Assembly (NCBI GenBank): GCA_034189695.1
Contig: JAXHUA010000165.1
Coordinates: 1-48,041, forward strand
Reading direction: 5' to 3'
DNA: 48,041 nucleotides
Source: Chloroflexota bacterium
GTDB taxonomy: Bacteria; Chloroflexota; Dehalococcoidia; E44-bin15
Shown here: piece by piece, positions 3,787-37,683 of the stretch
Numbering within the stretch: the stretch's first letter is position 1
How the letters are laid out: every line of letters begins with the position of its first letter
Translations under genes and position numbers: made by a program
Notes under the pieces: generated by a model
What the model saw: only the letters and a program-made list of their open reading frames with translations
What the model was told of the DNA's origin: nothing
Databases searched by the model: none

Positions 3787-5699
<1,913 letters not shown>

Positions 5700-25124: not shown

Positions 25125-26057
25125 GTGAACGGGGCGCGACGTTGCGGGTGGGTGCTGGTCCTGGCGGCGACGGTGGCCGTATTCGCCTTCGCCGGCGCGG
25201 CGCATGCCCAGGGAGGTATCCAGGTATCGCCGACACGGGTGGACATCACCGTCGACCAGGGCGGGCGGGCCAGCACGAATGTCACCGTCTGCAATCGCAG
25301 CGGCCAGGCGATGGGCGTTGTCGCGTACGTGATGGACTTCGACGCGGACTACGCGTTCTTCGAGCCCGGCGATGAGAGCTACTCGGCCGCCAGGTGGTTC
25401 GGCGTCAACGGGACGGACTGCGAACTCGGCCAGGGCGAGTGCCGGCGGATAGAGGTGGTCATAACCCCGCCAGCGCACGTGGAGCCGGGCGGTCACTACG
25501 CCGCCCTCTTCTTCCAGACGGCTGCCGCTGAAAGCGATGGTGGACTCTCTGTATCGGCACGCATCCCGGCGCTGTTCTACATCACGGTGCCGGGCGCGAC
25601 GGAGGCGGACGTCGTTGCCGATGCCGAGATAGCTTCCCTGATTCTGCCCGGCACTGTTGGCGGAAGGCCGGTGGAAGTGGGCGCGGTAGTGCGCAACACG
25701 GGCAACGTCCATCTGGGGGTGGCGGCCAGGGCGTATTTCGTTGACCTGTTGAACCGGCGCAGCGAGCTCGACCTGGGCCAGGCGCTGGTGCTTCCGGGGG
25801 GCGAGGCGCAGCTCAAAGGAACGTGGCCAGGAACACCATTCATAGGCCGGGTCAAGACCAGCGTCGTGATCGGGTTCGCCGACGAATCCGGGGCGCTGGT
25901 GAACAAGGCGCGGCGGGGTGGGTTCTGGGTGATTCCGTGGGTGCCCCTTGTCGCCGCAGGCGTGCCGCTGGTTGCGGTCGTGGCACTGGCCGTGGTGATG
26001 CGCAGGAGGTACCGTGTGAGGCTGGAGCGGCGCCCGGAACGGGAGACGCCTTCTTGA
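25125..26057 (+). CDS. DUF916-like (WxL-partner/PapD-like) membrane-anchored surface protein
   Basis: Signal peptide ending in AHA, VSPTRVDI, PGGHYAALFF, NTGNVH, C-terminal TM helix and basic tail. Confidence 0.7.
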   Translation: MNGARRCGWVLVLAATVAVFAFAGAAHAQGGIQVSPTRVDITVDQGGRASTNVTVCNRSGQAMGVVAYVMDFDADYAFFEPGDESYSAARWFGVNGTDCELGQGECRRIEVVITPPAHVEPGGHYAALFFQTAAAESDGGLSVSARIPALFYITVPGATEADVVADAEIASLILPGTVGGRPVEVGAVVRNTGNVHLGVAARAYFVDLLNRRSELDLGQALVLPGGEAQLKGTWPGTPFIGRVKTSVVIGFADESGALVNKARRGGFWVIPWVPLVAAGVPLVAVVALAVVMRRRYRVRLERRPERETPS

Positions 26058-26083
26058 CAGCCACAGGAGGTCTGTGGTAGATT
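26054..26083 (+). promoter_or_regulatory. Promoter upstream of the SARP regulator, implying a long leader
   Basis: TTGACA (26054-26059), 18 bp, TG-extended TAGATT (26078-26083). Confidence 0.6.
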
Positions 26084-26432
26084 CGCGCCAACCAGTTGGC
26101 GTCAGGCCATCCCGTCAGTCACCGGCACACCCAATGCTGGAGGATGGCACCCGCGCTACCGAGACACGTCCCTCGCGAGAGGGGAGCTCGCACCGCAGGT
26201 CATCTGAAGTGGAAACCGGCTAGATGATTGATGCCTCTCGCTGCAACCTGATTGGGCGTTCACTCCCGCACGCCGCAGCAACCTGGCCCCACTTCGTACT
26301 CATCTTCGACCATCGCTTCTGACGGATAAACAGGCGTGTTGGCGCGTCTTTTCGAAGGCATGGCGCAGTGGCGCCACCGCACCGGGGGCAGGGTCTCAAC
26401 GCATCTGGCCCGTGACCGAAAGGAGGGCGGCG

Positions 26433-27533
26433 ATGGAGGGTGCACGCGGAGTACATGGCTGGCCCGATGACGATTCGGGCAACCCGTGGCACCAGCTTGA
26501 GCTGAGCGTTCAGCTCCTGCGGCTGATGCAGAGCGACTATCAGCAGGCCAGGAGACACCTGGAGGATATCTGCAGCGCCTTCGGCGATAGGGAGCACATG
26601 ACCAGGCAGTACCTGCACACCGCGGTGGCGCTGGCCACACCGGCGGGAGTCCCCTCAGTCGGCCCGACCACCGTGTTGCCTTTCGTGCTCGGCGTTCCGT
26701 GCCGTCCTGCGCCTGTCATCGCTGCGCCGCAGATGGGGGCCGCCACCAGCCTGGGGCCGATGCAGGTCCGCTGCCTTGGCCGGTTCGAGGTCCGTCTTGG
26801 CTGGACCAAGGTGGAAACGTGGCGGAGCAGAAAGGCCAAGACGCTGTTGAAGTACCTCGTGGCCCAGGGCGGGCGACCGATACCCAAGGACGTGCTTATG
26901 GAGACCCTGTGGCCCGAAGCCGCCCCGCAGGCGGCCAACAATAGCCTCAAGGCGGCGGTGCATGCCCTGCGGCAGACGCTTGACCTGAGCGGCAGGGACA
27001 GCGCTGCTGGAGACGCCGCTTCCTACGTCCTGTTCGTCGAAGGCAACTACCTTCTCAATCCCGAGGTCGAGGTATGGATCGACGTGGATGAGTTTGAGCG
27101 CCAGTGGGCAGAGGGGCGCCGCCTGGACAGGGAGGGCCAGGTGTCCGAGGCGACAGCGTTGTATGCAGCCGCCGAACGGCTGTACATCGGAGACTTCCTC
27201 GAGGATGACCTCTACGAAGACTGGACGTTGCTGCGACGTGAAGCGCTCAAGGATACCTACCTGGCCGTACTGAGCAAGCTCAGTGACCGGGCGATGCGGG
27301 ACGACGATTGCGAAAGCTGCATAGTGTACTGCCAGAAGACCCTGGCCAAGGACCCCTGCCGCGAGGACGCATACCGCAGCCTGATGCAGTCCCACAGCAG
27401 GCTGGGACATCGCAGCCGGGCGCTGAACTGGTACGGGATATGCACGAAGACGTTGAACCTGGAGCTGGATACCGCCCCTGACGCGGAGACGGCTGCCCTC
27501 TATCAGCGCTTGCTCAAAGGCGAGGTCATCTAG
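26433..27533 (+). CDS. SARP/AfsR-family transcriptional activator (wHTH plus BTAD, no NB-ARC domain)
   Basis: VRCLGRFEV, KAKTLLKYL, LMETLWPE, LKAAVHALRQ, IDVDEF, LYIGDFL..WTL..RE, DPCREDAYRSLM. AAGGAGG RBS. Confidence 0.92.
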   Translation: MEGARGVHGWPDDDSGNPWHQLELSVQLLRLMQSDYQQARRHLEDICSAFGDREHMTRQYLHTAVALATPAGVPSVGPTTVLPFVLGVPCRPAPVIAAPQMGAATSLGPMQVRCLGRFEVRLGWTKVETWRSRKAKTLLKYLVAQGGRPIPKDVLMETLWPEAAPQAANNSLKAAVHALRQTLDLSGRDSAAGDAASYVLFVEGNYLLNPEVEVWIDVDEFERQWAEGRRLDREGQVSEATALYAAAERLYIGDFLEDDLYEDWTLLRREALKDTYLAVLSKLSDRAMRDDDCESCIVYCQKTLAKDPCREDAYRSLMQSHSRLGHRSRALNWYGICTKTLNLELDTAPDAETAALYQRLLKGEVI

Positions 27534-27629
27534 GCTTCGGCACGCCGCCCGGAGGTGGGCGCCGCCGGGCTCTTCCCCAGCTACACCAGCGATCCCCAGT
27601 CCTTCCATGCCCGTCGAATACGGGTGCGC

Positions 27630-27684
27630 ATTAACCCCGGATTAACCTCCCATTCACCCCTCTTTCACCGCTCGCTGCTAGCCT
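27630..27684 (+). promoter_or_regulatory. Putative SARP-activated promoter of the CIS operon
   Basis: ATTAACC, ATTAACC, ATTCACC and TTTCACC at 27630, 27641, 27652 and 27663 (11-bp period), then TGcTAGCCT extended -10 (27676-27684). No -35 box. Confidence 0.75.
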
Positions 27685-27775
27685 GCTTCTGGCTCATTGC
27701 AGCGAGCGACATGCCGAACCCTGGGCCGCTCGCCCTCATACTGTCTGTACGGGGTTCACACAGGAGACGATAGGC

Positions 27776-27994
27776 GTGGGATACTACAACTCCTTCGTGG
27801 TCAAGATCTGGTCTGAAGAGCCGGGAGGGAGAGTGAGAGGGCACATACAACACGTGAGCAGCCAGGAGAGCTGTAATTTCCTGGACCTGGACAAGATAGT
27901 GGAGTTCATCACGGCGCATCTGGGCCCGCCGTCGCCAGCCGGGGAACGGGAAGAGCTGGGTGACGCCATCCATGAGAACAGGAACGAGCGTTGA
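27776..27994 (+). CDS. Small hypothetical protein, first gene of the CIS operon
   Basis: 72 aa, SFVVKIW..RGHIQHV..F.DL...EFI. AGGAG RBS and TTGA overlap with the ATPase gene. Confidence 0.75.
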   Translation: MGYYNSFVVKIWSEEPGGRVRGHIQHVSSQESCNFLDLDKIVEFITAHLGPPSPAGEREELGDAIHENRNER

Positions 27995-30201
27995 CGGGCT
28001 TGATTGAAGAGAAGACGGCGACCGGATTCGGCACCAGCCTGGAGCACCTGCTGGCCGAGCTGGGCCGGATTGACCTGATGATCCGCCTCAGGCTGCATCA
28101 GGCGCGTCTGAGGGACCCGGGCACCGTCGAGGACGAGTTCCGCGGGCTGTACATCTCGGAGGGTGAGGTGGAGGCATTCCTCGCGGGCGCCACTCCGCTA
28201 TTCGGCGACGACGCCTGGAGCTGCGCGGGTGATGCCGGCGTGGTAGCCATTGAGGATGCGCTGGAGCAACGGCGACGGGAGATCGCTCGCAGGAAGGCGG
28301 TGGCCCTGAGCAACGGTGTGGAAATGCGTCTGCACCGGCTGAGCCAGCTGTTCGGCCTGAGCGCCTTCGATATCGATGCCCTCCTGGTATGCATGCTGCC
28401 TGAGGTCGACCTGAGGTACGAGAGGCTCTACGCCTATCTGCACGACGACGTCACCAGGAAGAGGCCGAGCATCGACCTCGTGCTGCGGTTGCTGTGTCCC
28501 GCGCTCGAAGAACGGCTGGCGGCGAGAGAGGCCTTCTGCAACGATGCTCCGTTGCTGAAGGGCGGCGTCCTCCAGGTTGAAAGTGACCAACATGGGCGAG
28601 CGGCGTCGTTCCTGAGCCAGGTCCTCAGTATCGATCAGCGGGTGGTGGGCTATCTGCTGGGGTCGGACCAGCTCGATGCGCGCGTAGCGCTCTTTGCCGA
28701 ACTGGTCGAGCCTGGGGTGGGGTGGCCGGAGTTGATACTCCCCGAGGACGTGAAGGACCGGCTGCGCGGACTGCCGCATCGCGACCGGGATGGGCTGGTG
28801 TGCTATCTGCACGGGCCCTACGGCGTGGGACGGCGAACGGCGGCCGAGGCCATGTGCCGGGAGGCGGGCGTCCAGCTTCTGGTGGTCGATGTGGGTCGGC
28901 TGGGGTGGGCCGAGGTCTCCGTTGAGGCGGCGGCCGACCTGGCGATGCGAGAGGCGAGCCTGCGGGGCGGGATGATGTACTGGCACGGCTTCGAGGCCGT
29001 GCCAGCCGAGGGGGAAGCTATGCTTGGCCGTGTGGCGGCCAGGCTGGCGGGCTGGTCAGGCGTGACGCTGCTCGGCGGCGAGGCCCCGTGGGTGCCGCAG
29101 GGCTGGCATGAGCAATGTCATTTCGTATCCATCGAGATGCCGTTCCCGACGCATGCGCTGCGAAGGCGCCTGTGGCAGGCGCACCTCGACGGACAGTGCC
29201 CGGGGGACGATGAGGTGAGTGCTCTGGCCGACAGGTTCCATTTCACTGCAGGACAGATCCGGGACGCGGTGGGCACGGCTGAGAGCCTGGCTCTGGCCGA
29301 GGGACGGCCGGACGACGGCATCGGTCTCGGCGACCTGTATCGGGCGTGCCGCATGCAGTCGAATCAGACCCTCTCCAGCCTGGCGAAGAAGATAGAGCCA
29401 CGGTATGACTGGGACGACATCGTGCTGCCCCCCGACCAGGCGGCGCAACTGCGTGAGATATGCGAGTACGTCCAGCAGCGCCACGTGGTGTACGGCGAGT
29501 GGGGGTTCGGCGGCAAGCTGGCCACAGGTGGCGGCCTCAACGCGCTCTTTGCCGGGCCATCCGGGACAGGCAAGACCATGGCCAGCGAGATTATCGCCAG
29601 TGAGCTGCTGCTCGACCTGTACAAGATCGACCTCTCGGGTGTCGTCAGCAAGTACATCGGGGAGACGGAGAAGAACCTGGACAGGGTCTTTCGTGAGGGC
29701 CGGGACTCGAACGCCATCCTCCTGTTTGACGAGGCTGACGCTCTCTTCGGCAAGCGCTCCGAGGTGCGCGACTCGCACGACCGCTACGCCAACATCGAGG
29801 TGGCCTATCTGTTGCAGAAGATGGAGGAGTACGAAGGCATCGTAATCATGGCCACCAATCTGCGCAAGAACGTGGACGAGGCCTTCGCCCGCCGCATGCA
29901 TTTCGCCGTCGAGTTCCCCTTCCCCGAGGAGCACTACCGGCATGAGATCTGGAAGCGTGTCTTCCCGCTGGAGGCGCCGCTGGCTGAGGACGTGGACCTG
30001 GCGTTCCTGGCGCGTCAACTGAAGGTTACCGGCGGCAACATAAAGAACATCGCTCTGGCAGCGGCCTTTCTGGCCGCAGCGGACTCATCGGCGATCGCCA
30101 TGGGGCATGTCATAAAAGGTGCGAAGAGAGAGTATCAGAAGATCGGGAAGCTCTGCACCGAGGCTGATTTCGGCCGGTATTTCGACGTGGTGAAAGGCTA
30201 G
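27991..30201 (+). CDS. CIS AAA+ ATPase (Afp15/Pvc15-like)
   Basis: 736 aa. YAYLHDDVTRKRPS N-domain, degenerate first P-loop GPYGVGRRT, intact GPSGTGKT, VVSKYIGETEKNL, LLFDEADALFGKRSEV.DSHDRYAN. Confidence 0.95.
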   Translation: MTGLIEEKTATGFGTSLEHLLAELGRIDLMIRLRLHQARLRDPGTVEDEFRGLYISEGEVEAFLAGATPLFGDDAWSCAGDAGVVAIEDALEQRRREIARRKAVALSNGVEMRLHRLSQLFGLSAFDIDALLVCMLPEVDLRYERLYAYLHDDVTRKRPSIDLVLRLLCPALEERLAAREAFCNDAPLLKGGVLQVESDQHGRAASFLSQVLSIDQRVVGYLLGSDQLDARVALFAELVEPGVGWPELILPEDVKDRLRGLPHRDRDGLVCYLHGPYGVGRRTAAEAMCREAGVQLLVVDVGRLGWAEVSVEAAADLAMREASLRGGMMYWHGFEAVPAEGEAMLGRVAARLAGWSGVTLLGGEAPWVPQGWHEQCHFVSIEMPFPTHALRRRLWQAHLDGQCPGDDEVSALADRFHFTAGQIRDAVGTAESLALAEGRPDDGIGLGDLYRACRMQSNQTLSSLAKKIEPRYDWDDIVLPPDQAAQLREICEYVQQRHVVYGEWGFGGKLATGGGLNALFAGPSGTGKTMASEIIASELLLDLYKIDLSGVVSKYIGETEKNLDRVFREGRDSNAILLFDEADALFGKRSEVRDSHDRYANIEVAYLLQKMEEYEGIVIMATNLRKNVDEAFARRMHFAVEFPFPEEHYRHEIWKRVFPLEAPLAEDVDLAFLARQLKVTGGNIKNIALAAAFLAAADSSAIAMGHVIKGAKREYQKIGKLCTEADFGRYFDVVKG

Positions 30202-30214
30202 AGGGCGGACTGAT

Positions 30215-31705
30215 ATGGCAAGAGGCAAGGGAAAGAGGCCGGGCGGTGGCCGCCCGGCGGCCCGCACGAGCCGCAAGGGCAGCGTGCGCTCGCCGGGGGC
30301 CGGCAAGCCGGCCAGGCACGGCAGCCATGTGCGTGTGCCGTCGCCGGTCTCGGAGAGGACGCCGGACGAGGTCGCCGAGCACAAGCGCCTCGCCATGCTG
30401 GGCGACGGCCGGCTGTCTCATACGGCGAACGCCGCGCAGAAGGCAGACGTGCTGAACATGCTTCAGCAGGGTTACGGCAACGCCTATGTGCAGCGGGTCG
30501 TGGACCGCATCCGGGCCAGAAGGGACGATGGGCTGTCATCGCGGGACAGCTCTGCCGGCATTGAGCGGGGCATCGCCGGCGAGAGGGGTGCGGGCCGGCC
30601 TCTGGAGCCGAGGGTCAGCTCCGAGATGGGGGAACGTTTTGGCCGCGGTCTGGACGACGTGCGGGTACACGACGATGCCGCCGCAGACGGGCTGGCGAAG
30701 GGACTGGGTGCGCGGGCGTTCACCGTCGGTGGTGACGTCTTCTTCCGCCACGGCAGCTACGCCCCGGATTCAGTCGAAGGACAGAGGCTGCTGGCCCACG
30801 AGCTGACCCACGTGGTGCAGCAGACGGGTGGCAAAGGCGGCGGCCAGGCCCCGGTACAGTTCATGCCCGACGTTGCACCGGACGTTGACATGGCCATACG
30901 GAAGTGGCTCAGCGCTGAACCAGCCGCCTCCATTCTGAAGCCCGAGGCGCTCGCGGCGCGGGTACGGAGCGCGATACCCGAGGCAAGCGGTCTGTCGGAT
31001 GACGACGTCCAGGCGGTGTACCACCGCTGGAAGCTGTCGCGCAGCCTGACAAAGCCCTTGCTGCCAATGGGCCCCGCACCGACACCACCGGCCAAGGAGC
31101 CTGTGGGCGGTTCGGCGCTGGCCGACACAGTCAAGAAGGTCACCGACGCCTTCAAGAGCATACCGACCCAGGTCAAGGTCAGCGTGAAAGGCGGTTCGGT
31201 CGTTGTCGACGCCAGCGGGGCCACGAGCAAGCTCAAGGTGGACAAGGCGACGCTCACGGCGGCCGCCGGATGGAATGGCAACTTCAAGATAGGAGCAAGC
31301 TATCGCGGCTCGGGGTCGCTCGCCGCCGGCCAGATGGTCAATCTGTCGGCGAGCGTGAACGCCAAGAAGTACTCCATAAGCCTGCGCATCGGCCCCAGTG
31401 TCACCGCGATCGACAAGCTGCCTGACATCGTCGAGAAGGCCGAGGAGGGACTGGGAGACCTGCTGTCGGACATAGGCTCACTGAACCTGGAGAGCCTGGA
31501 CGATGTGAAAGCGAGTGCCGGACGGATCGCCGACCACGTGAAGTCGATAAAGACGGCAGTCGATGCCTGCTCCAAGCTCGAAGGGGCGAGAACGGGGGGG
31601 GTGCCACCCATATTCCTGAGCTTGAAGGCGCAGTTCCCCACAGCCAAGGGAAAAGAGGAAGGCGTGCCCACGAGTGTCATGGGCATGATAACGATACCGT
31701 TCTAG
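30215..31705 (+). CDS. DUF4157 (eCIS core) domain cargo/effector protein 1
   Basis: GRPL...VRVHDD..A..LGARAFTVG.DVFF..LLAHELTHVVQQ. C-terminal domain not recognised. Confidence 0.88.
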   Translation: MARGKGKRPGGGRPAARTSRKGSVRSPGAGKPARHGSHVRVPSPVSERTPDEVAEHKRLAMLGDGRLSHTANAAQKADVLNMLQQGYGNAYVQRVVDRIRARRDDGLSSRDSSAGIERGIAGERGAGRPLEPRVSSEMGERFGRGLDDVRVHDDAAADGLAKGLGARAFTVGGDVFFRHGSYAPDSVEGQRLLAHELTHVVQQTGGKGGGQAPVQFMPDVAPDVDMAIRKWLSAEPAASILKPEALAARVRSAIPEASGLSDDDVQAVYHRWKLSRSLTKPLLPMGPAPTPPAKEPVGGSALADTVKKVTDAFKSIPTQVKVSVKGGSVVVDASGATSKLKVDKATLTAAAGWNGNFKIGASYRGSGSLAAGQMVNLSASVNAKKYSISLRIGPSVTAIDKLPDIVEKAEEGLGDLLSDIGSLNLESLDDVKASAGRIADHVKSIKTAVDACSKLEGARTGGVPPIFLSLKAQFPTAKGKEEGVPTSVMGMITIPF

Positions 31706-31747
31706 CCGTCGTATGGCTGTACGTCGGGGGAACGGCTGGAGGTCGAG

Positions 31748-33571
31748 ATGCCGGAGCGTGCACACAGAGAGGGTGACGAGCAGAGAGCCCAGCGCAGGCA
31801 GAAGGCGGGGCAGTCAGAGGCCGGGCATCTCAAGGCGCGGGACGAGTCGCCCGAGGCGACGGCAGACGTGTCGCCGCTGGAAGGCCAAGCCGCCATCCTC
31901 AGCGACGGGCGCTTCTCCCACCCGGCCAACGCGGGGCAGAAGGCGCAGGTGGCAAGCCATCTCCAGCGAAGCCATGGGAACGCTTACGTGCAGCGCCTGC
32001 TCGATTCGAAAACGGTCCAGGCGAAGCTCACCGTGAACCCGCCCGACGACCAGTACGAGCGGGAAGCCGACAGGGTGGCCGAGGCCGTGTCGCGGGCTCC
32101 AGATACCGGCGTCCAGCGCCAGGAGGAGGAAGAGGAGGAGGAGGGGGAGGCAGCGGTGCAGGCCAAACCGGCCGCTGGCCACAACCTCCAGGGGCTGCAG
32201 CGACAGGTCGAAGAGGGAGGGGAAGAAGAGGAGGTGGAGGAGGAAGCGGTGCAGACAAAACCGGCCGTCAGTCAGAGCGTCCATACGCTGCAGCGACAGG
32301 TTGAAGAAGGAGAGGAGCAAGAGGAGGAAGAGGAAGCGACAGCACAGACCAAACCAGTGGCAGCACGGCCCCCCAAGGTATCCAGGGGGCTGGAGAGGCG
32401 CATCGACGCCGCGCGTGGCGGCGGCCGGCCGCTGGGCGATTCCGTGCGGGCCCCGCTTGAGAACCAGTTCGAGCGCGACCTCAGCCAGGTGCACGTCCAC
32501 ACCGACCATGAGGCGGACAGGCTGAGTCGTGAACTCCAGGCCAGCGCCTTCACCTCAGGGCGGGATGTGTTCTTCCGCCAGGGAGCATACGACCCCCATT
32601 CCCAGGCTGGCATGGGTCTCTTGGGCCATGAGGTGACTCACGTGGTGCAGCAGGGCGCAGCCGGACCGGACAGGTCCCAACCCGTCACTGGGAGTCCACC
32701 GGTACAGGCTTCGCCTCTTCCTGAGGCCGCGGCCATCCAGCGCCAGGGTGCAGCACGCGAAGAAGAGGAAGAGCCGTGGTGGCTGAAGAAGGGGATCACG
32801 GCGAAGCGTGGCGTTGGCATTGACAAGAAGGCGGCGGCTGAGAAGCTGGGGAGCGTTAACAACACGGCGAGAGTCAACGCCGTGTCATTCTCCGATGAGG
32901 TGGGCAAAGCGTGCGATCATTTCGAGGTCTATGCCAAACCGAGGATATCGGCTCTGAAGGGTGAGCTCACAGCGGGCGAACTGGTGAGTTCCCTGCTGAG
33001 CGCGGCCCTGGGGCCTCTTCGCCAGCAATTCACCGAGCGCGTCGCGACCGTGCTCGGAGAGAAAGTGACGGCAGCGGTGACCGGCAAGTTTGACACGGCG
33101 GTGAAGGACGCCGCCAAGAAGGTTGTGGCAAACGAGTCGGATGTGAAGGCCCTCGAGGACGCTGTGGCCAAGGCGTGCGCCGGTGCAAAGGACGCCGCCA
33201 CCAGACTCAAGGACGCGGTGGGGGAGAACCTCACGCCTGCCATTGACGCCACGCAGAGGCGACTGTACGAGGACCTGCCGCTGACCGAGGCGCAGGACGA
33301 GATGGTGGGCATGTTCTACGAGGCGCCGGTGCGGAACGTTGACGACTACCTTGAGAGGTTCTACGGCGTCCCCAGCAAGGCCAAAGCCAGGGCACTCCAG
33401 GTCCAGGTGTACTACCACCTGGTGCGGCGCTTCGAGGAGAAGGTCATTGAGGCCGAGTGGCCGATGGACTTCGAGGAAAGGCTGCGCAAGAGAGCGCTGA
33501 AGGGACACATCGCCAGTGAGCGGGCACTCAGGGCGGCCGAGGAGCGCAGGAAAGCGCTCGAAGGAGAGTAG
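31748..33571 (+). CDS. DUF4157 (eCIS core) domain cargo/effector protein 2
   Basis: VQAKLTVNPPDDQYEREADRVA, acidic QRQ-E(n)-QxKP repeats, VHVHTD..AFTSGRDVFF..LLGHEVTHVVQQ. Helical C-terminus. Confidence 0.9.
   Translation: MPERAHREGDEQRAQRRQKAGQSEAGHLKARDESPEATADVSPLEGQAAILSDGRFSHPANAGQKAQVASHLQRSHGNAYVQRLLDSKTVQAKLTVNPPDDQYEREADRVAEAVSRAPDTGVQRQEEEEEEEGEAAVQAKPAAGHNLQGLQRQVEEGGEEEEVEEEAVQTKPAVSQSVHTLQRQVEEGEEQEEEEEATAQTKPVAARPPKVSRGLERRIDAARGGGRPLGDSVRAPLENQFERDLSQVHVHTDHEADRLSRELQASAFTSGRDVFFRQGAYDPHSQAGMGLLGHEVTHVVQQGAAGPDRSQPVTGSPPVQASPLPEAAAIQRQGAAREEEEEPWWLKKGITAKRGVGIDKKAAAEKLGSVNNTARVNAVSFSDEVGKACDHFEVYAKPRISALKGELTAGELVSSLLSAALGPLRQQFTERVATVLGEKVTAAVTGKFDTAVKDAAKKVVANESDVKALEDAVAKACAGAKDAATRLKDAVGENLTPAIDATQRRLYEDLPLTEAQDEMVGMFYEAPVRNVDDYLERFYGVPSKAKARALQVQVYYHLVRRFEEKVIEAEWPMDFEERLRKRALKGHIASERALRAAEERRKALEGE
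32111..32356 (+). repeat. Three imperfect intragenic repeats (VQRQ/LQRQ, poly-Glu, QAKP/QTKP)
   Basis: CTGCAGCGACAGGT and CAGACxAAACC recur at DNA level, with GAG/GAA runs between them. Confidence 0.8.
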
Positions 33572-33665
33572 GCGGAGAGGGCCTGATGCAGATGTCAACG
33601 CGGAAAGTGGCTCTGGAGACTGCGGTGGCTGATACGTGCCGTCAGTCCAGAGGGCGGGCATAGAG

Positions 33666-35189
33666 ATGGCGGATAGACACACGAAGACAGAGACGCGGAG
33701 TCGCGAGCCCGAGAAGGCCCGTGAGGGGCAAAGGCCTCGCGACGCAGCCCCGCAGCCTATGAACGAGCTCGGCGGCGACGCTGCGGTATTCGAGAGCCTC
33801 CTCGCCACACCGGCGATGGGACTGCCGGTGGAGCGCCACGCGGCCACTCTGAACGATGCCCGGTTCAGCCATCGGGCGAACGCTGGCCAGAAGGCGCGCA
33901 TGGTGAGCCAGCTCCAGCGGCACTACGGCAACGGTCATGTGCAGCGGGTGCTGGACTCCGTGACGGCGCAGGCGCCTGACTCGATCGTCCAGCGCCAAAC
34001 AGAGGACGACGGCGCGCGTGCACTCCACACAGAGCCCCTATCCGAAACGGCTGAAGGGGTGCCCGGCAACATGGGGACACGTATCTCGACCCCGGCGAGC
34101 GGCCGCCCGGTTGTCACACAGCAGGCTATGAGTCCGGTGATCGCCCGCTCGCCGGGTGAGCCCGGCACCACCACCACCGAGGAAGAGGAGATGGAGGAGC
34201 TGATGGAGGGGGCGGCCCCCGGCGAGCTGGACTTGGAGGAACTGGCCGCGGCCTACAGCGAAGGAACGCCGCTGGAGGAGGCCGAGTCCCGCGCCGGGAC
34301 TCCCAGTGAGGAATGGCCCGAACTGGAGCCGGGTCAGCGTACCGCGATCAGGGGTCTCATCAGCAGTGGGCAGCGCCAGGGAGCGGTCGACCGATTGTGG
34401 GACCTCCTGGCCCTGCCTCAGCGGAGTCGGGTCTCCCCGACCCCCCAGGTGACCACGGAGCTGGGGATAGTCGACGGTGTTCCCGTGTCGAGAGGGGGGG
34501 CACTGACCTCCGGGCTGTGCATCCCGTATGTCGTTGCCACCACGGCCTGCGCCGGCTGCCCCGAATCGGAGCACTGGCAGCGACACAACAACGACGAGCT
34601 GCGCGCCGTTATCCAGATACACAACCGCGTATTTGAGCGCTCGCCGGCCGAGGCGGTGGGCCAGCTCCTCAGCACCGTAATGCACGAGTACACCCACGTG
34701 CGACAGATGCTCGATGAGGGTATCCACGAGGGAATCTCTTTCGCCACCTATCCGCCAGGCTCCCGCGCCGCAGTCGGGGAGAGGGAGTTCGTTGCTTCCG
34801 CAGCCAGCGTGTCCCCGGCCGAGCGGCGACGCATGGAAGCGCTTCAGGAGGTGGACGCCGTCTGTTCTGAGTTAGAGAACCTCGACAGGACCGGCCTCAC
34901 CGGGCTGGGACTCCAGGGGGTAATCAACTATCTGTGGGACAACTACAGGCAGTACGTCTCCAGCCTCGGAGGCGACCCCGCAGACCCGGCGGTGGAAGAG
35001 CGCACGTATCAGAGCCTGCGTCGCGGCAGACAGCGGTTCGTCGCCTATCTCCCACATTCACCGTACCCGCCACGCCATAGGCAGTACCTCCTCGAGCGCT
35101 GCCCTGAGGACTATGACCCCAGCCTCATGAGTGGCAGGGAGCTGACCGGCCCCGCGGCCGGCGAACACACGGAGGCGGAATCGGAGTGA
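33666..35189 (+). CDS. CIS cargo/effector protein 3, putative gluzincin metallopeptidase without the DUF4157 core
   Basis: Shares the N-terminal motif with cargo 1 and 2. HEYTH plus downstream EVDA. Alternative start at 33636. Confidence 0.75.
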   Translation: MADRHTKTETRSREPEKAREGQRPRDAAPQPMNELGGDAAVFESLLATPAMGLPVERHAATLNDARFSHRANAGQKARMVSQLQRHYGNGHVQRVLDSVTAQAPDSIVQRQTEDDGARALHTEPLSETAEGVPGNMGTRISTPASGRPVVTQQAMSPVIARSPGEPGTTTTEEEEMEELMEGAAPGELDLEELAAAYSEGTPLEEAESRAGTPSEEWPELEPGQRTAIRGLISSGQRQGAVDRLWDLLALPQRSRVSPTPQVTTELGIVDGVPVSRGGALTSGLCIPYVVATTACAGCPESEHWQRHNNDELRAVIQIHNRVFERSPAEAVGQLLSTVMHEYTHVRQMLDEGIHEGISFATYPPGSRAAVGEREFVASAASVSPAERRRMEALQEVDAVCSELENLDRTGLTGLGLQGVINYLWDNYRQYVSSLGGDPADPAVEERTYQSLRRGRQRFVAYLPHSPYPPRHRQYLLERCPEDYDPSLMSGRELTGPAAGEHTEAESE

Positions 35190-35216
35190 ACGGAAAGAGC
35201 CTGAGAGAGGGTAGCC

Positions 35217-36035
35217 ATGATCGCAGACCTTGACGAGACCATCAAGCAACTGCTGATGCAGAAGGGCTCTCTGGACTCAACCGAGGTGGACATCTGTTTC
35301 GACATGCCGGGACAGGAGTGGTCGGCGGGCATCACCAAGCCCACGATCAACCTCTACCTCTATGACATCAGAGAGAACCACGACCTGCGGCTCTACGACT
35401 GGGAGACCGAGCGTAACGAGGACAAGACCGCCACCAAGAGGAGGATGCCGGTCCGGGTCGACCTGACGTATCTCATCACCGTGTGGACGAGCAATGTCGA
35501 CGACGAGCACCGGCTGCTCTGGTATGTACTCGCTGCCCTATTTCGCTATCCTTTGATCCCCACGGACGTGTACCAGGGCGAACTGGCGGGCACGGATATG
35601 CTTATCTCCACCCTCGTCGCTCAACCAGACGGCCCGTTGCGGAACCCGGCCGATTTCTGGGCGTCGCTCGATAATCGCTTGAAGGCCTCAATCAACTACG
35701 TAGTCACCGTGCCTCTAGACCTTGACGTGCACGTCTCCGCTCCCGTCGTGAGCACCAGGGTCCTTGGCGTGCGCGGCATAGACCAGGCGGACAGCGAGGA
35801 GCGACTCCAGGTGAAGGGAGTGCTGCACGAGAAAGGCAAACCGCACCAGGTGATTCCGCAGGCCACCCTGTTCATCAAGGAGGCGGGCAGGACCGCGACG
35901 ACGGACGAGCAGGGGCGCTGGGCTTTCAGCAAGCTGTCGCGAGGCGAGTACACCGTCAGGGTTAGAGCGCCGGACCGCAAGGAGAAAGAGATGGTGCTGA
36001 GCGTACCGAGTCTCAGCTATGACATCGAGGTCTAG
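35217..36035 (+). CDS. CIS cap/terminator (Afp16/Pvc16, DUF4255) with a C-terminal carboxypeptidase-regulatory-like domain
   Basis: MIADLDETIKQLL, ICFDMP..W, PTINLYLYDIREN, DLTYLITVW...DEHRLL, and C-terminal TTDEQGRWAF..L..GEYTV. Confidence 0.9.
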   Translation: MIADLDETIKQLLMQKGSLDSTEVDICFDMPGQEWSAGITKPTINLYLYDIRENHDLRLYDWETERNEDKTATKRRMPVRVDLTYLITVWTSNVDDEHRLLWYVLAALFRYPLIPTDVYQGELAGTDMLISTLVAQPDGPLRNPADFWASLDNRLKASINYVVTVPLDLDVHVSAPVVSTRVLGVRGIDQADSEERLQVKGVLHEKGKPHQVIPQATLFIKEAGRTATTDEQGRWAFSKLSRGEYTVRVRAPDRKEKEMVLSVPSLSYDIEV

Positions 36036-36132
36036 GTGAACAAGACCATTCATTCAGGAGGCAAGGAGGGAGGAGAGATGTAGGCGATCACCGCACACAA
36101 GTAGCGATAGAACGAAGGAAGGAGGGAACACT

Positions 36133-37683
36133 ATGGCACCGCAATATCTTTCCCCTGGTGTCTACGTTGAAGAGGTGGACAAGGGCGCCAGACCCATTGA
36201 GGGCGTTGGAACGGCGGTGGCTGCCTTTCTCGGCTTCGCCGAGGATGGGCCGGTGAACCAGGCCACGCTGATTGCCAACTGGACGCAGTTCCTCAACGTG
36301 TTCGGCGGGTTCATCTCGGGCTCATACCTGGCCCACTCTGTGTACGGGTACTTCAACAACGGCGGCGGCAGCTGCTACGTCACCCGCCTGCCCGACGTCG
36401 AAGGCGTGGGAGAGCCGAAGGCTCCGCAGGCGCAGGCTTCCCTGCCCGCCCGCGGCAAGGCCTCGCTGGAGAGCCTGAGCGTTACGGCGCTGGAGCCCGG
36501 CGAGGTCACGGTTGAAGTGGCCGCCCCCGGCGAGGAGGCTGCCGAGGACGAGTTCAACCTTGTCGTGCGCAGGGGCGGTACCGAGGAGGTCTTCGAGAGC
36601 GTCACGCTGAGGAAGGGCAGGGGAGTGCGCAATGTGGTGGAGGTGGTCAACAAGGAGTCGAAGCTGGTACGCGTGGCGGAGCGCGAGTCGAGCCTGAGCC
36701 TGCCGGAGCGGGTTCCAGCGGCCGGGACGTATGCTCTCACCGTATCGGAGTCCAAGGCGGTGGCGGCCAAGCAGGTGGGCACCGATCTCATTATGGGCGA
36801 TGCCGCCGAGCGGACCGGCCTGGCCGGTTTTGAGGCCGCCGACGACGTGACCATGGTGTGTGTGCCGGAGCTTATGGGGCTGTACCAGCGCGGGGCGCTG
36901 TCGCTGGAAGGGGTCAAGGCGGTACAGCAGGCCATGCTCGACCACTGCGCCAACATGAAGGACCGGTTCGCCATCCTGGACAGCCCGCCGGGCATGAGCC
37001 CGCAGCAGATCAGGGACTGGCGGCTGAACGAGGCTGGCTACGACTCCAAGTATGGCGCGGTGTACTACCCCTGGATCAAGGTAGCCAACCCCCTGGGCAA
37101 CGGCGAGGCAGTGCTCGTCCCGCCCAGCGGCCACATGGCTGGCATCTACGCCCGCAGCGATACGGAGCGCGGCGTACACAAGGCGCCGGCGAACGAGATC
37201 GTGCGAGGAGCACTGGGGCTGGAGGCACAGATCACCAAGAGTGAGCAGGACTCCCTCAACCCTGAGGGCATCAACTGCATCCGCACCTTCCCCGGGCGGG
37301 GTATCCGCGTCTGGGGCGCCCGCACACTCTCGAGCGATGCCCAGTGGCGCTACATCAATGTGCGACGCCTGTTCAACTTCGTTGAGGAATCGATCGAGGC
37401 GGGCACCCAGTGGATCGTCTTCGAACCCAACGACATGGACCTGTGGGCGCGCATCAGACGGGACGCAAGCGCCTTCCTGACCCGGGTGTGGCGTGACGGG
37501 GCGCTCTTCGGCGCCACGCCGAGCGACGCCTTCTACGTCAAGTGTGACGAGGAGCTCAACACGGTGGAGGTGCGCGACGCCGGCCAGGTGATAATCGAGA
37601 TAGGCATGGCGCCGGTGAAACCGGCTGAGTTTGTCATCTTTCGCATCAGCCAGTGGGCCGGTGGCGCTGCTGTAGCAGAATAG
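36133..37683 (+). CDS. Contractile tail sheath protein
   Basis: YLSPGVYVEEV, YFNNGG, YYPWI, PPSG..AGIYARSD..RGVHKAPAN, GIRVWGARTL, WRYINVRRL, PVKPAEFVIFRI. Confidence 0.97.
   Translation: MAPQYLSPGVYVEEVDKGARPIEGVGTAVAAFLGFAEDGPVNQATLIANWTQFLNVFGGFISGSYLAHSVYGYFNNGGGSCYVTRLPDVEGVGEPKAPQAQASLPARGKASLESLSVTALEPGEVTVEVAAPGEEAAEDEFNLVVRRGGTEEVFESVTLRKGRGVRNVVEVVNKESKLVRVAERESSLSLPERVPAAGTYALTVSESKAVAAKQVGTDLIMGDAAERTGLAGFEAADDVTMVCVPELMGLYQRGALSLEGVKAVQQAMLDHCANMKDRFAILDSPPGMSPQQIRDWRLNEAGYDSKYGAVYYPWIKVANPLGNGEAVLVPPSGHMAGIYARSDTERGVHKAPANEIVRGALGLEAQITKSEQDSLNPEGINCIRTFPGRGIRVWGARTLSSDAQWRYINVRRLFNFVEESIEAGTQWIVFEPNDMDLWARIRRDASAFLTRVWRDGALFGATPSDAFYVKCDEELNTVEVRDAGQVIIEIGMAPVKPAEFVIFRISQWAGGAAVAE

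Follow-up and report, generated by a model that had tools for sequence, protein, structure and literature searches.

The SARP gene, the repeats and the eCIS operon

The window, i.e. the whole stretch of DNA analysed here (48,041 nucleotides), carries a gene for a SARP-type activator, an array of four heptamer repeats and an eCIS operon. All features listed below are on the forward strand; negative positions are counted from the predicted transcription start site (TSS), with the -10 placed at -12 to -7.

26054..26083, forward strand: promoter-like site of the SARP gene, -35/18 nt/extended -10, 10 of 12 matches, TG present
26433..27533, forward strand: SARP-type activator gene, Trans_reg_C + BTAD; N-terminal long helix, linker, OmpR-type wHTH, BTAD
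27547..27570, forward strand: GC-rich inverted repeat just past the SARP stop codon, 9-nt arms and 6-nt loop, possible weak terminator
27630..27636, forward strand: heptamer 1, ATTAACC, about -61 to -55
27641..27647, forward strand: heptamer 2, ATTAACC, about -50 to -44
27652..27658, forward strand: heptamer 3, ATTCACC, about -39 to -33, occupying the -35 position
27663..27669, forward strand: heptamer 4, TTTCACC, about -28 to -22
27676..27684, forward strand: predicted extended -10, TGc + TAGCCT, from the sequence and its conservation in aligned rows
27776..27994, forward strand: small72, first gene of the operon, 72 aa, beta-beta-beta-alpha core; overlaps the start of the ATPase gene
27991..30201, forward strand: WHD + AAA ATPase (Pfam)
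30215..48041, forward strand: rest of the eCIS operon (Pfam), continuing past the end of the window

The open reading frame of the SARP gene opens at GTG 26412 and encodes 373 residues; the start codon common to the orthologues is ATG 26433. In Pfam searches, the protein contains one OmpR-like wHTH (Trans_reg_C, E 3.3e-07; 30.7 bits, cut-off 26.2), directly followed by one BTAD domain, which is matched over its full length (1–146 of 146, E 1.8e-23). Using phmmer, EmbR was aligned to residues 109–370 of 373 (E 1.2e-06), whereas AfsR was not matched by the sequence search at an E-value of 0.01. The AF2 model was built from 13 orthologues and has a pLDDT of 76.8; it contains a helix (residues 18–68), a disordered segment (69–104) and the SARP domain (110–361), in which residues 110–216 form a strand-helix wHTH. 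The best solved folds identified by Foldseek are 8k60_J (E 5.9e-10), 8hvr_I (1.1e-09) and 2fez (3.8e-08), aligned over about 256–264 columns. 8k60 and 8hvr are AfsR SARP domains in transcription initiation complexes, and EmbR comes next. The sequence-only reading had named the regulator a SARP, and the Pfam domains, the EmbR match and the two fold matches all agree; the protein encoded by 26433–27533 has a genuine, non-actinobacterial SARP domain.

The N-terminal helix and linker are conserved in the SARP orthologues. Used alone as query, the N-terminal 110 residues identified three proteins, all of which are full-length orthologues. In its passages on domain composition, one study distinguished 'small' SARPs from 'large' SARPs with C-terminal additions (PMC10936776); unlike both, the window SARP has its addition at the N-terminus. 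The helix may help self-association. In the source genome (G000), BTAD has one strong match, the SARP gene itself, and one weak match on contig C182 (E 4.5e-4). A further seven regulators with an OmpR-type wHTH are encoded in this genome.

Upstream of the SARP gene, the promoter hexamers and the TG are kept in all four aligned orthologous upstream regions. The leader of the gene is about 350 nt in length, and conserved blocks were observed in 4/4 orthologues (26054–26432). A matrix scan found no repeat array at the promoter of the SARP gene, and Rfam gave no match at E 1 within 25800–28000. The covariation term for a leader structure was -0.81, calculated from four sequences only. The leader could be the place where an input signal acts. 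Past the SARP stop codon, the inverted repeat at 27547–27570 was not called by the terminator scan; its form makes a weak terminator possible.

Downstream of the array, the sequence-only reading had expected the first CIS gene. The SARP and eCIS context was confirmed, but the first gene of the operon encodes a 72-aa protein, small72, which is no CIS part. Y3, Y4, F7, V8, W12, G22, Q25, H26, V27 and F35 are invariant in small72. No Pfam family and no named Atlas cluster was found for it; in the Atlas it falls in Chloroflexota-only clusters, one of which has 2277 members. The listed core appears in its AF2 model (pLDDT 75.6), which matched no known fold in the structural search (best Z 3.9), and no relative was found in viral_contigs. 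The following WHD + AAA ATPase may resemble the eCIS ATPase Afp15. The remaining genes encode three eCIS_core proteins, Pvc16_N, sheath, tube, spike/hub, baseplate J and Tail_P2_I (Pfam). Structural genes, Pvc16_N, eCIS_core and AAA ATPase all run in one direction from 27776 to 48041, and the window ends inside this operon. The DNA datasets that contain this stretch are labelled as marine or marine-sediment metagenomes.

The repeat array and its conservation

The start-to-start period of the four heptamers is exactly 11 bp. Between heptamer 4 and TAGCCT (27679–27684) are 9 nt (27670–27678), whose last letters are TGC; the gap is 9 nt in the heptamer register used here, and moving the register by one position makes it 8. 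A consensus promoter scan of 26000–28200 found no sigma-70-type -35/-10 pair at the array, and its single match is the site upstream of the SARP gene. Repeats, phase, gap, TG and missing -35 thus agree exactly with the sequence-only reading. We infer the -10 from its conservation, and the TSS is predicted near 27691–27692, about 7 nt past TAGCCT. According to its passages on SARP operators, one study gives the rule that direct repeats are spaced 11 or 22 bp apart, with 8 bp between the 3′ repeat and the -10 (PMC10936776). The 27630–27684 segment follows this rule, as had been proposed: its direct repeats are spaced 11 bp apart, and the 3′ repeat lies about 8 bp from the predicted -10, with the array replacing the -35.

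The array had also been called AT-rich, which holds only modestly; the GC content of 27600–27699 is 0.57, compared to about 0.60–0.70 around it. WTTMACC-N4-WTTMACC pairs occur three times in the window, all at the array, and in none of 100 shuffles. With three units, the pattern is unique to the array in the 2,342,759-base genome, and the reversed control gave zero. On a position matrix from 80 orthologous units the array scores 44.8 bits, and the genome runner-up (29.8 bits) is a different motif. No variants were found within 27534–27775 in the reads of three DNA runs and one RNA run; the RNA run gave no coverage, and no RNA dataset containing the locus was listed. The 5′ UTR fold of the window (z -0.45) is not notable; that of the orthologous locus L004 has a z of -2.24.

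Two other places in the source genome were dismissed as targets. G000 C49:1728 lies across the start of a small ORF on the minus strand, presumably that of ribosomal protein L28 (read by eye), and lies upstream of a fakA-like gene; C137:4862 belongs to a different, TTCTCC-type repeat. The latter array (C137:4851–4901; L122, about 1852–1902) is also 11-bp-phased, scores 29.8 bits on the eCIS matrix and lies by ORFs without Pfam families.

Orthologous loci were collected through the proteins. The order SARP, small gene, ATPase is kept in L004 (G008, SARP identity 69%), L014 (67%) and L016 (47%), and in each of them four heptamers with the 11-bp period are followed, after 9 nt, by TAnnnT. When the four intergenic regions are aligned, heptamers and -10 stand out as a conserved island, and the 4-nt spacers differ. 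L015, whose SARP is 49% identical, has no array and no eCIS on its 6-kb contig. In L014:3914–5106 the SARP frame is split into two ORFs (3914–4522 and 4624–5106) by a frameshift or an assembly error; its array and operon are intact.

A metagenome scan with small72 gave 27 loci, of which 23 are true homologues and four (L117–L120) were rejected as small72 genes, being partial matches (E 1e-7 to 5e-4) with no array. Together with the window, L004, L014 and L016, the 23 metagenome homologues (L094–L116) make up an examined set of 27 loci. All 27 have an array of four or five units with an 11-bp period; the set represents about 15 distinct lineages, estimated from near-identical rows, and since many loci are kin or near-duplicates the counts overstate independence. 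The periodicity was scored without any consensus, as identity among four 7-mers. At period 11, the self-similarity was reached by at most one of 200 shuffles in 24/27 loci, and periods 8–10 and 12–14 were at background. L100, L102 and L103, which are of one lineage, failed this score. In these three and in one L112 array, one unit is degenerate (one of five in L100, L102 and L103) and a good -10 lies 21 nt, i.e. two turns, past the last unit. L112:1–4314 contains tandem modules, in which a SARP gene, two arrays and a small gene are followed by a second SARP gene, which overlaps the small gene at its end, two arrays and a second small gene; this arrangement suggests a positive feedback or relay design.

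The unit profile was derived from 80 units in 20 aligned rows. Position 1 is A in 52, T in 15, G in 10 and C in 3 units; positions 2 and 3 are T in 77 and 79, A, C and T are similarly frequent at position 4 (27, 27 and 25), positions 5 and 6 are A in 70 and C in 78, and position 7 is C in 56 and T in 23. The WTTMACC consensus proposed earlier is too narrow at position 1 (A > T > G), position 4 (A, C or T) and position 7 (C > T). TAnnnT lies 9 nt past the last unit in 19/20 aligned rows. The TGn of an extended -10 precedes it in just 10 of the 20. In all 22 loci with enough upstream DNA, the array is preceded by a SARP gene; the other five contigs are too short.

The array is conserved down to about 40% SARP identity, with spacers diverging. 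In 624 kb of other SARP-homologue loci, scores of at least 18 bits occur only at two eCIS-linked ones. The phased repeats are thus kept at homologous loci, where their absence would have spoken against the original proposal. From these alignments, the array is a conserved cis-element.

We also scanned 401 genomes of the class. The degenerate four-unit pattern was found in 15 of them, compared to one for the reversed control. Six genomes have SARP-array-small72 loci (tblastn), all with the 9-nt gap and TAnnnT; two have the order PhoR-array-pstS, and in a further two the arrays adjoin kinase fragments, with CTTAAC-type units in all four; several remaining arrays have no -10 grammar. The SARP protein matched 25 places in 23 of the same genomes. 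Ten of the 25 have small72 and/or the ATPase downstream, with eight clear arrays and two irregular or degenerate ones (G225 and G042). At the G388 locus an array lies directly before a cargo-like ORF, with no small72; 13 places are paralogue loci with neither small72 nor array, and one is cut by a contig end. The motif-only and protein-first scans recovered the same loci. Full-grammar arrays whose units start with A or T number eight in 6/401 genomes, and these are only the genomes that carry the SARP-small72 module.

Two further full-grammar arrays were found on other contigs of G204 and G258 (L164:1501–2812 and L159:1501–3037), and both genomes carry the SARP cassette. The ORFs downstream of them have no Pfam family. 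They share an N-terminal motif with the window eCIS_core protein, and one also has an HExxH stretch; the link to eCIS_core is weak (E 0.006 and 8e-4, single comparisons). To judge by this motif, they are possible unlinked eCIS cargo genes of the same regulon.

Proteins that may bind the array

Given the adjacent gene and the conserved geometry, we consider it likely that the SARP attaches to the array and brings RNA polymerase to the promoter that has no -35 element; by the same token, it is probably the cognate binder of these repeats. The array would be the operator of the SARP encoded immediately upstream. Each 11-bp turn would hold one SARP protomer on its heptamer, so that all four line up along the same face of the helix. 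Heptamers 3 and 4, next to the promoter (about -39 to -33 and -28 to -22), would replace the missing -35 element; the SARP there would touch the polymerase core and sigma region 4 in the way of AfsR at afsS, and cooperative binding would come from heptamers 1 and 2. Transcription from near 27691 would then run into the 72-aa gene, the AAA ATPase gene and the eCIS structural genes. Binding, activation, TSS and a stoichiometry of four protomers are what we infer for this promoter.

Further support comes from one Anaerolineales MAG (L017), which encodes a SARP paralogue of 42% identity. The recognition helix of the paralogue is altered, and the N-terminal extension is also present. Directly 3′ of its gene, at L017:4806–4860, four units of a different heptamer are followed by about 9–10 nt and TATATT; the genes downstream have no Pfam family. 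The changed helix together with the different heptamer supports the idea that arrays follow their SARP. The irregular arrays of the two distant loci, G225 and G042, were counted against binding by the SARP, as were the degenerate unit and remote -10 of the L100, L102, L103 and L112 arrays, the kinship of many loci and the presence of the seven further OmpR-type regulators in the source genome. In addition, the same grammar fits PhoB/OmpR-type activators, and therefore the geometry alone cannot tell a SARP from those.

One alternative is that the array is a Pho-box-like site, bound by a PhoP-type OmpR-family regulator instead of the SARP, or in cooperation or competition with it. We regard this as unlikely, although it is the best of the alternatives. 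PhoP acting instead of the SARP would tie particle production to phosphate starvation. The source genome has a candidate Pho box at C91:8448–8490 (L124:1449–1520), with four CTTAAC-type units at 11 bp. It lies after genes for an OmpR-type regulator and a PhoR-like HAMP-PAS-HisKA kinase and before MGS-pstS-pstC-pstA. Like arrays precede pstS in six relatives (G010, G009, G005, G008, G243 and G404), and in G243 the last unit also lies 9 nt from a TAnnnT hexamer. Compared to the eCIS units, the pst-linked units are alike at 6/7 positions; mainly position 1 differs (C instead of A). A parallel exists in Streptomyces, where AfsR and PhoP bind overlapping sequences, according to the part of the AfsR study that deals with them (PMC10936776).

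That difference at position 1 is, however, consistent. C occurs there in just 3/80 eCIS units, whereas it is the rule in the pst arrays, and the pst array scores only 19.3 bits on the eCIS matrix, compared to 44.8 for the eCIS array. Full-grammar arrays that start with A or T were found only in SARP-small72 genomes, whereas Pho-type arrays lie before pstS also where no SARP was found. The window array is not upstream of phosphate-regulon genes: small72, the ATPase and the eCIS genes lie downstream, and the pst locus is on another contig with its own array. PhoP acting alone would also leave the adjacent SARP with no visible target.

It is more improbable still that the repeats act otherwise, as a repressor operator, a small72 feedback site or a curvature or UP-like element that aids an extended -10 promoter with constitutive activity. 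Being fairly rich in A/T and in phase with the helix, the repeats can bend DNA; the conservation is nevertheless base-specific, with T2, T3, A5 and C6 in 70–79 of 80 units, beyond mere A/T content. In the window, a perfect 10-nt inverted repeat brackets the -10 (27669–27678 and 27699–27708; its core CGCTCGC occurs again at 27726–27733), but this repeat was not seen on inspection of three aligned orthologues. Heptamers in direct repeat with 4-bp spacers, abutting a -10 that has no -35, are the classic arrangement of an activator, as the operator descriptions in two studies have it (PMC10936776, PMC5930380). Feedback by small72 would fit its constant place as first gene of the SARP-array-small72 loci; the structural search, however, showed no recognisable DNA-binding fold in its model (best Z again 3.9). 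That the array is a functionless tandem repeat, neutral or arisen by chance, is virtually dismissed by the shuffle and reversed-pattern controls and by conservation that extends to about 40% SARP identity in spite of diverging spacers; nothing but the general frequency of short intergenic repeats speaks for it.

The SARP-array-small72 module and known systems

The array had been described as a switch for the CIS operon, which fits the window; the SARP-array-small gene module also lies before non-CIS loci. Among distant relatives, it precedes a Pvc16_N gene, i.e. eCIS, in G076. In G056 (L193) it precedes a radical-SAM/SPASM/methyltransferase cluster, in G298 (L194) the gene of a 2128-aa RHS-repeat protein, and in G042 (L195) genes of unassigned function and a multicopper oxidase. 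The SARP-array-small72 module is not CIS-specific.

Tentatively, and with less than even confidence, we suggest that the SARP, the four-unit operator and the 72-aa gene form a portable Chloroflexota cassette, a counterpart of AfsR-AfsS outside the actinomycetes, which is plugged before varied 'weapon' loci, with small72 as a needed second step of the switch, and which is possibly cross-wired with PhoP. 'Weapon' loci here comprise eCIS operons, unlinked eCIS cargo-like genes, the RHS toxin gene and the radical-SAM/SPASM cluster. Within such a cassette small72 would be, e.g., a co-activator or processivity factor and no part of the particle. Since a single base in each unit separates the operator from the organism's candidate Pho box, the cassette may be cross-wired to phosphate starvation via PhoP. 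AfsR and PhoP compete in Streptomyces, which makes cross-talk a reasonable idea.

To our knowledge, little has been established about the switching on of eCIS particles. The base-by-base profile from about 80 units and the concrete candidate operator and promoter make eCIS switching testable for one widespread lineage. The array matrix also offers a simple way to find regulon members, and the cargo-like genes on other contigs were found in this way. For uncultured Dehalococcoidia, the regulator-promoter pair could be used to induce silent loci in a heterologous host. The SARP operator grammar, known from Streptomyces, is extended to another phylum and to targets other than antibiotics. A full-text literature search found neither the array operator nor any SARP from Chloroflexi described, and no account of an eCIS promoter with a SARP site. 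The BTAD-eCIS neighbourhood and the SARP operator grammar are already known; variant features here are the number of units (four or five), the additional helix at the N-terminus and an obligatory small first gene.

AfsR-afsS of Streptomyces coelicolor is among the closest known systems: the target promoter lies directly 3′ of the regulator gene and the first product is a small protein, as in the window. Like the window SARP, AfsR (8hvr/8k60) contains an OmpR-type wHTH and BTAD (fold match E 6e-10, TMt 0.75), with about 21% identity over the aligned fold. According to the passages on its operator, the afs box spans -40 to -19 and overlaps the -35, and the first 8 bp of each 11-bp repeat are contacted; it likewise consists of 11-bp direct repeats, with two proximal units at about -40 to -22 that replace a poor -35, and a weak -10 (PMC10936776). 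The afs box has two units, whereas the window array has four (relatives sometimes five) of a different heptamer. Different from AfsR, the window SARP carries a helix and linker at its N-terminus and lacks the C-terminal NOD/TPR; it is from Chloroflexota, and its target operon encodes eCIS.

ActII-ORF4 and DnrI are cluster-situated SARPs with similar operators. Cluster-situated SARPs target antibiotic clusters, whereas the array here precedes the genes of an injection particle, and the arrays of relatives precede an RHS toxin gene or a radical-SAM cluster. The PimR operator, as described in part of its study, likewise contains heptamers with 4-bp spacers in the promoter of an adjacent target, and cooperative binding of monomers was proposed; it is made up of three units and stays clear of the -35, whereas the window array has four and lies at the -35 position (PMC5930380). 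The Pho boxes of PhoB/PhoP are likewise composed of 11-bp direct repeat units that abut a -10 with no -35, and Streptomyces PhoP was described to bind 11-nt direct repeat units in the relevant part of one report (PMC2275107). Compared to these boxes, the window array is not before phosphate genes, is linked to a SARP instead of a two-component pair, and has A or T rather than C at position 1.

With regard to eCIS, adjacent RfaH, GerE or BTAD genes were named as regulators in published surveys, in passages that give no sites (PMC8213781). BTAD (PF03704) is among the eCIS shell domains, and adjacent BTAD genes were drawn as regulators, in the corresponding sections of Geller et al. 2021 (PMC8213781); the BTAD-eCIS neighbourhood was repeated in PMC12961389. 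In those sections of Geller et al., the BTAD-eCIS association comes with no binding site, promoter or mechanism, whereas here a candidate operator and promoter are proposed for one lineage.
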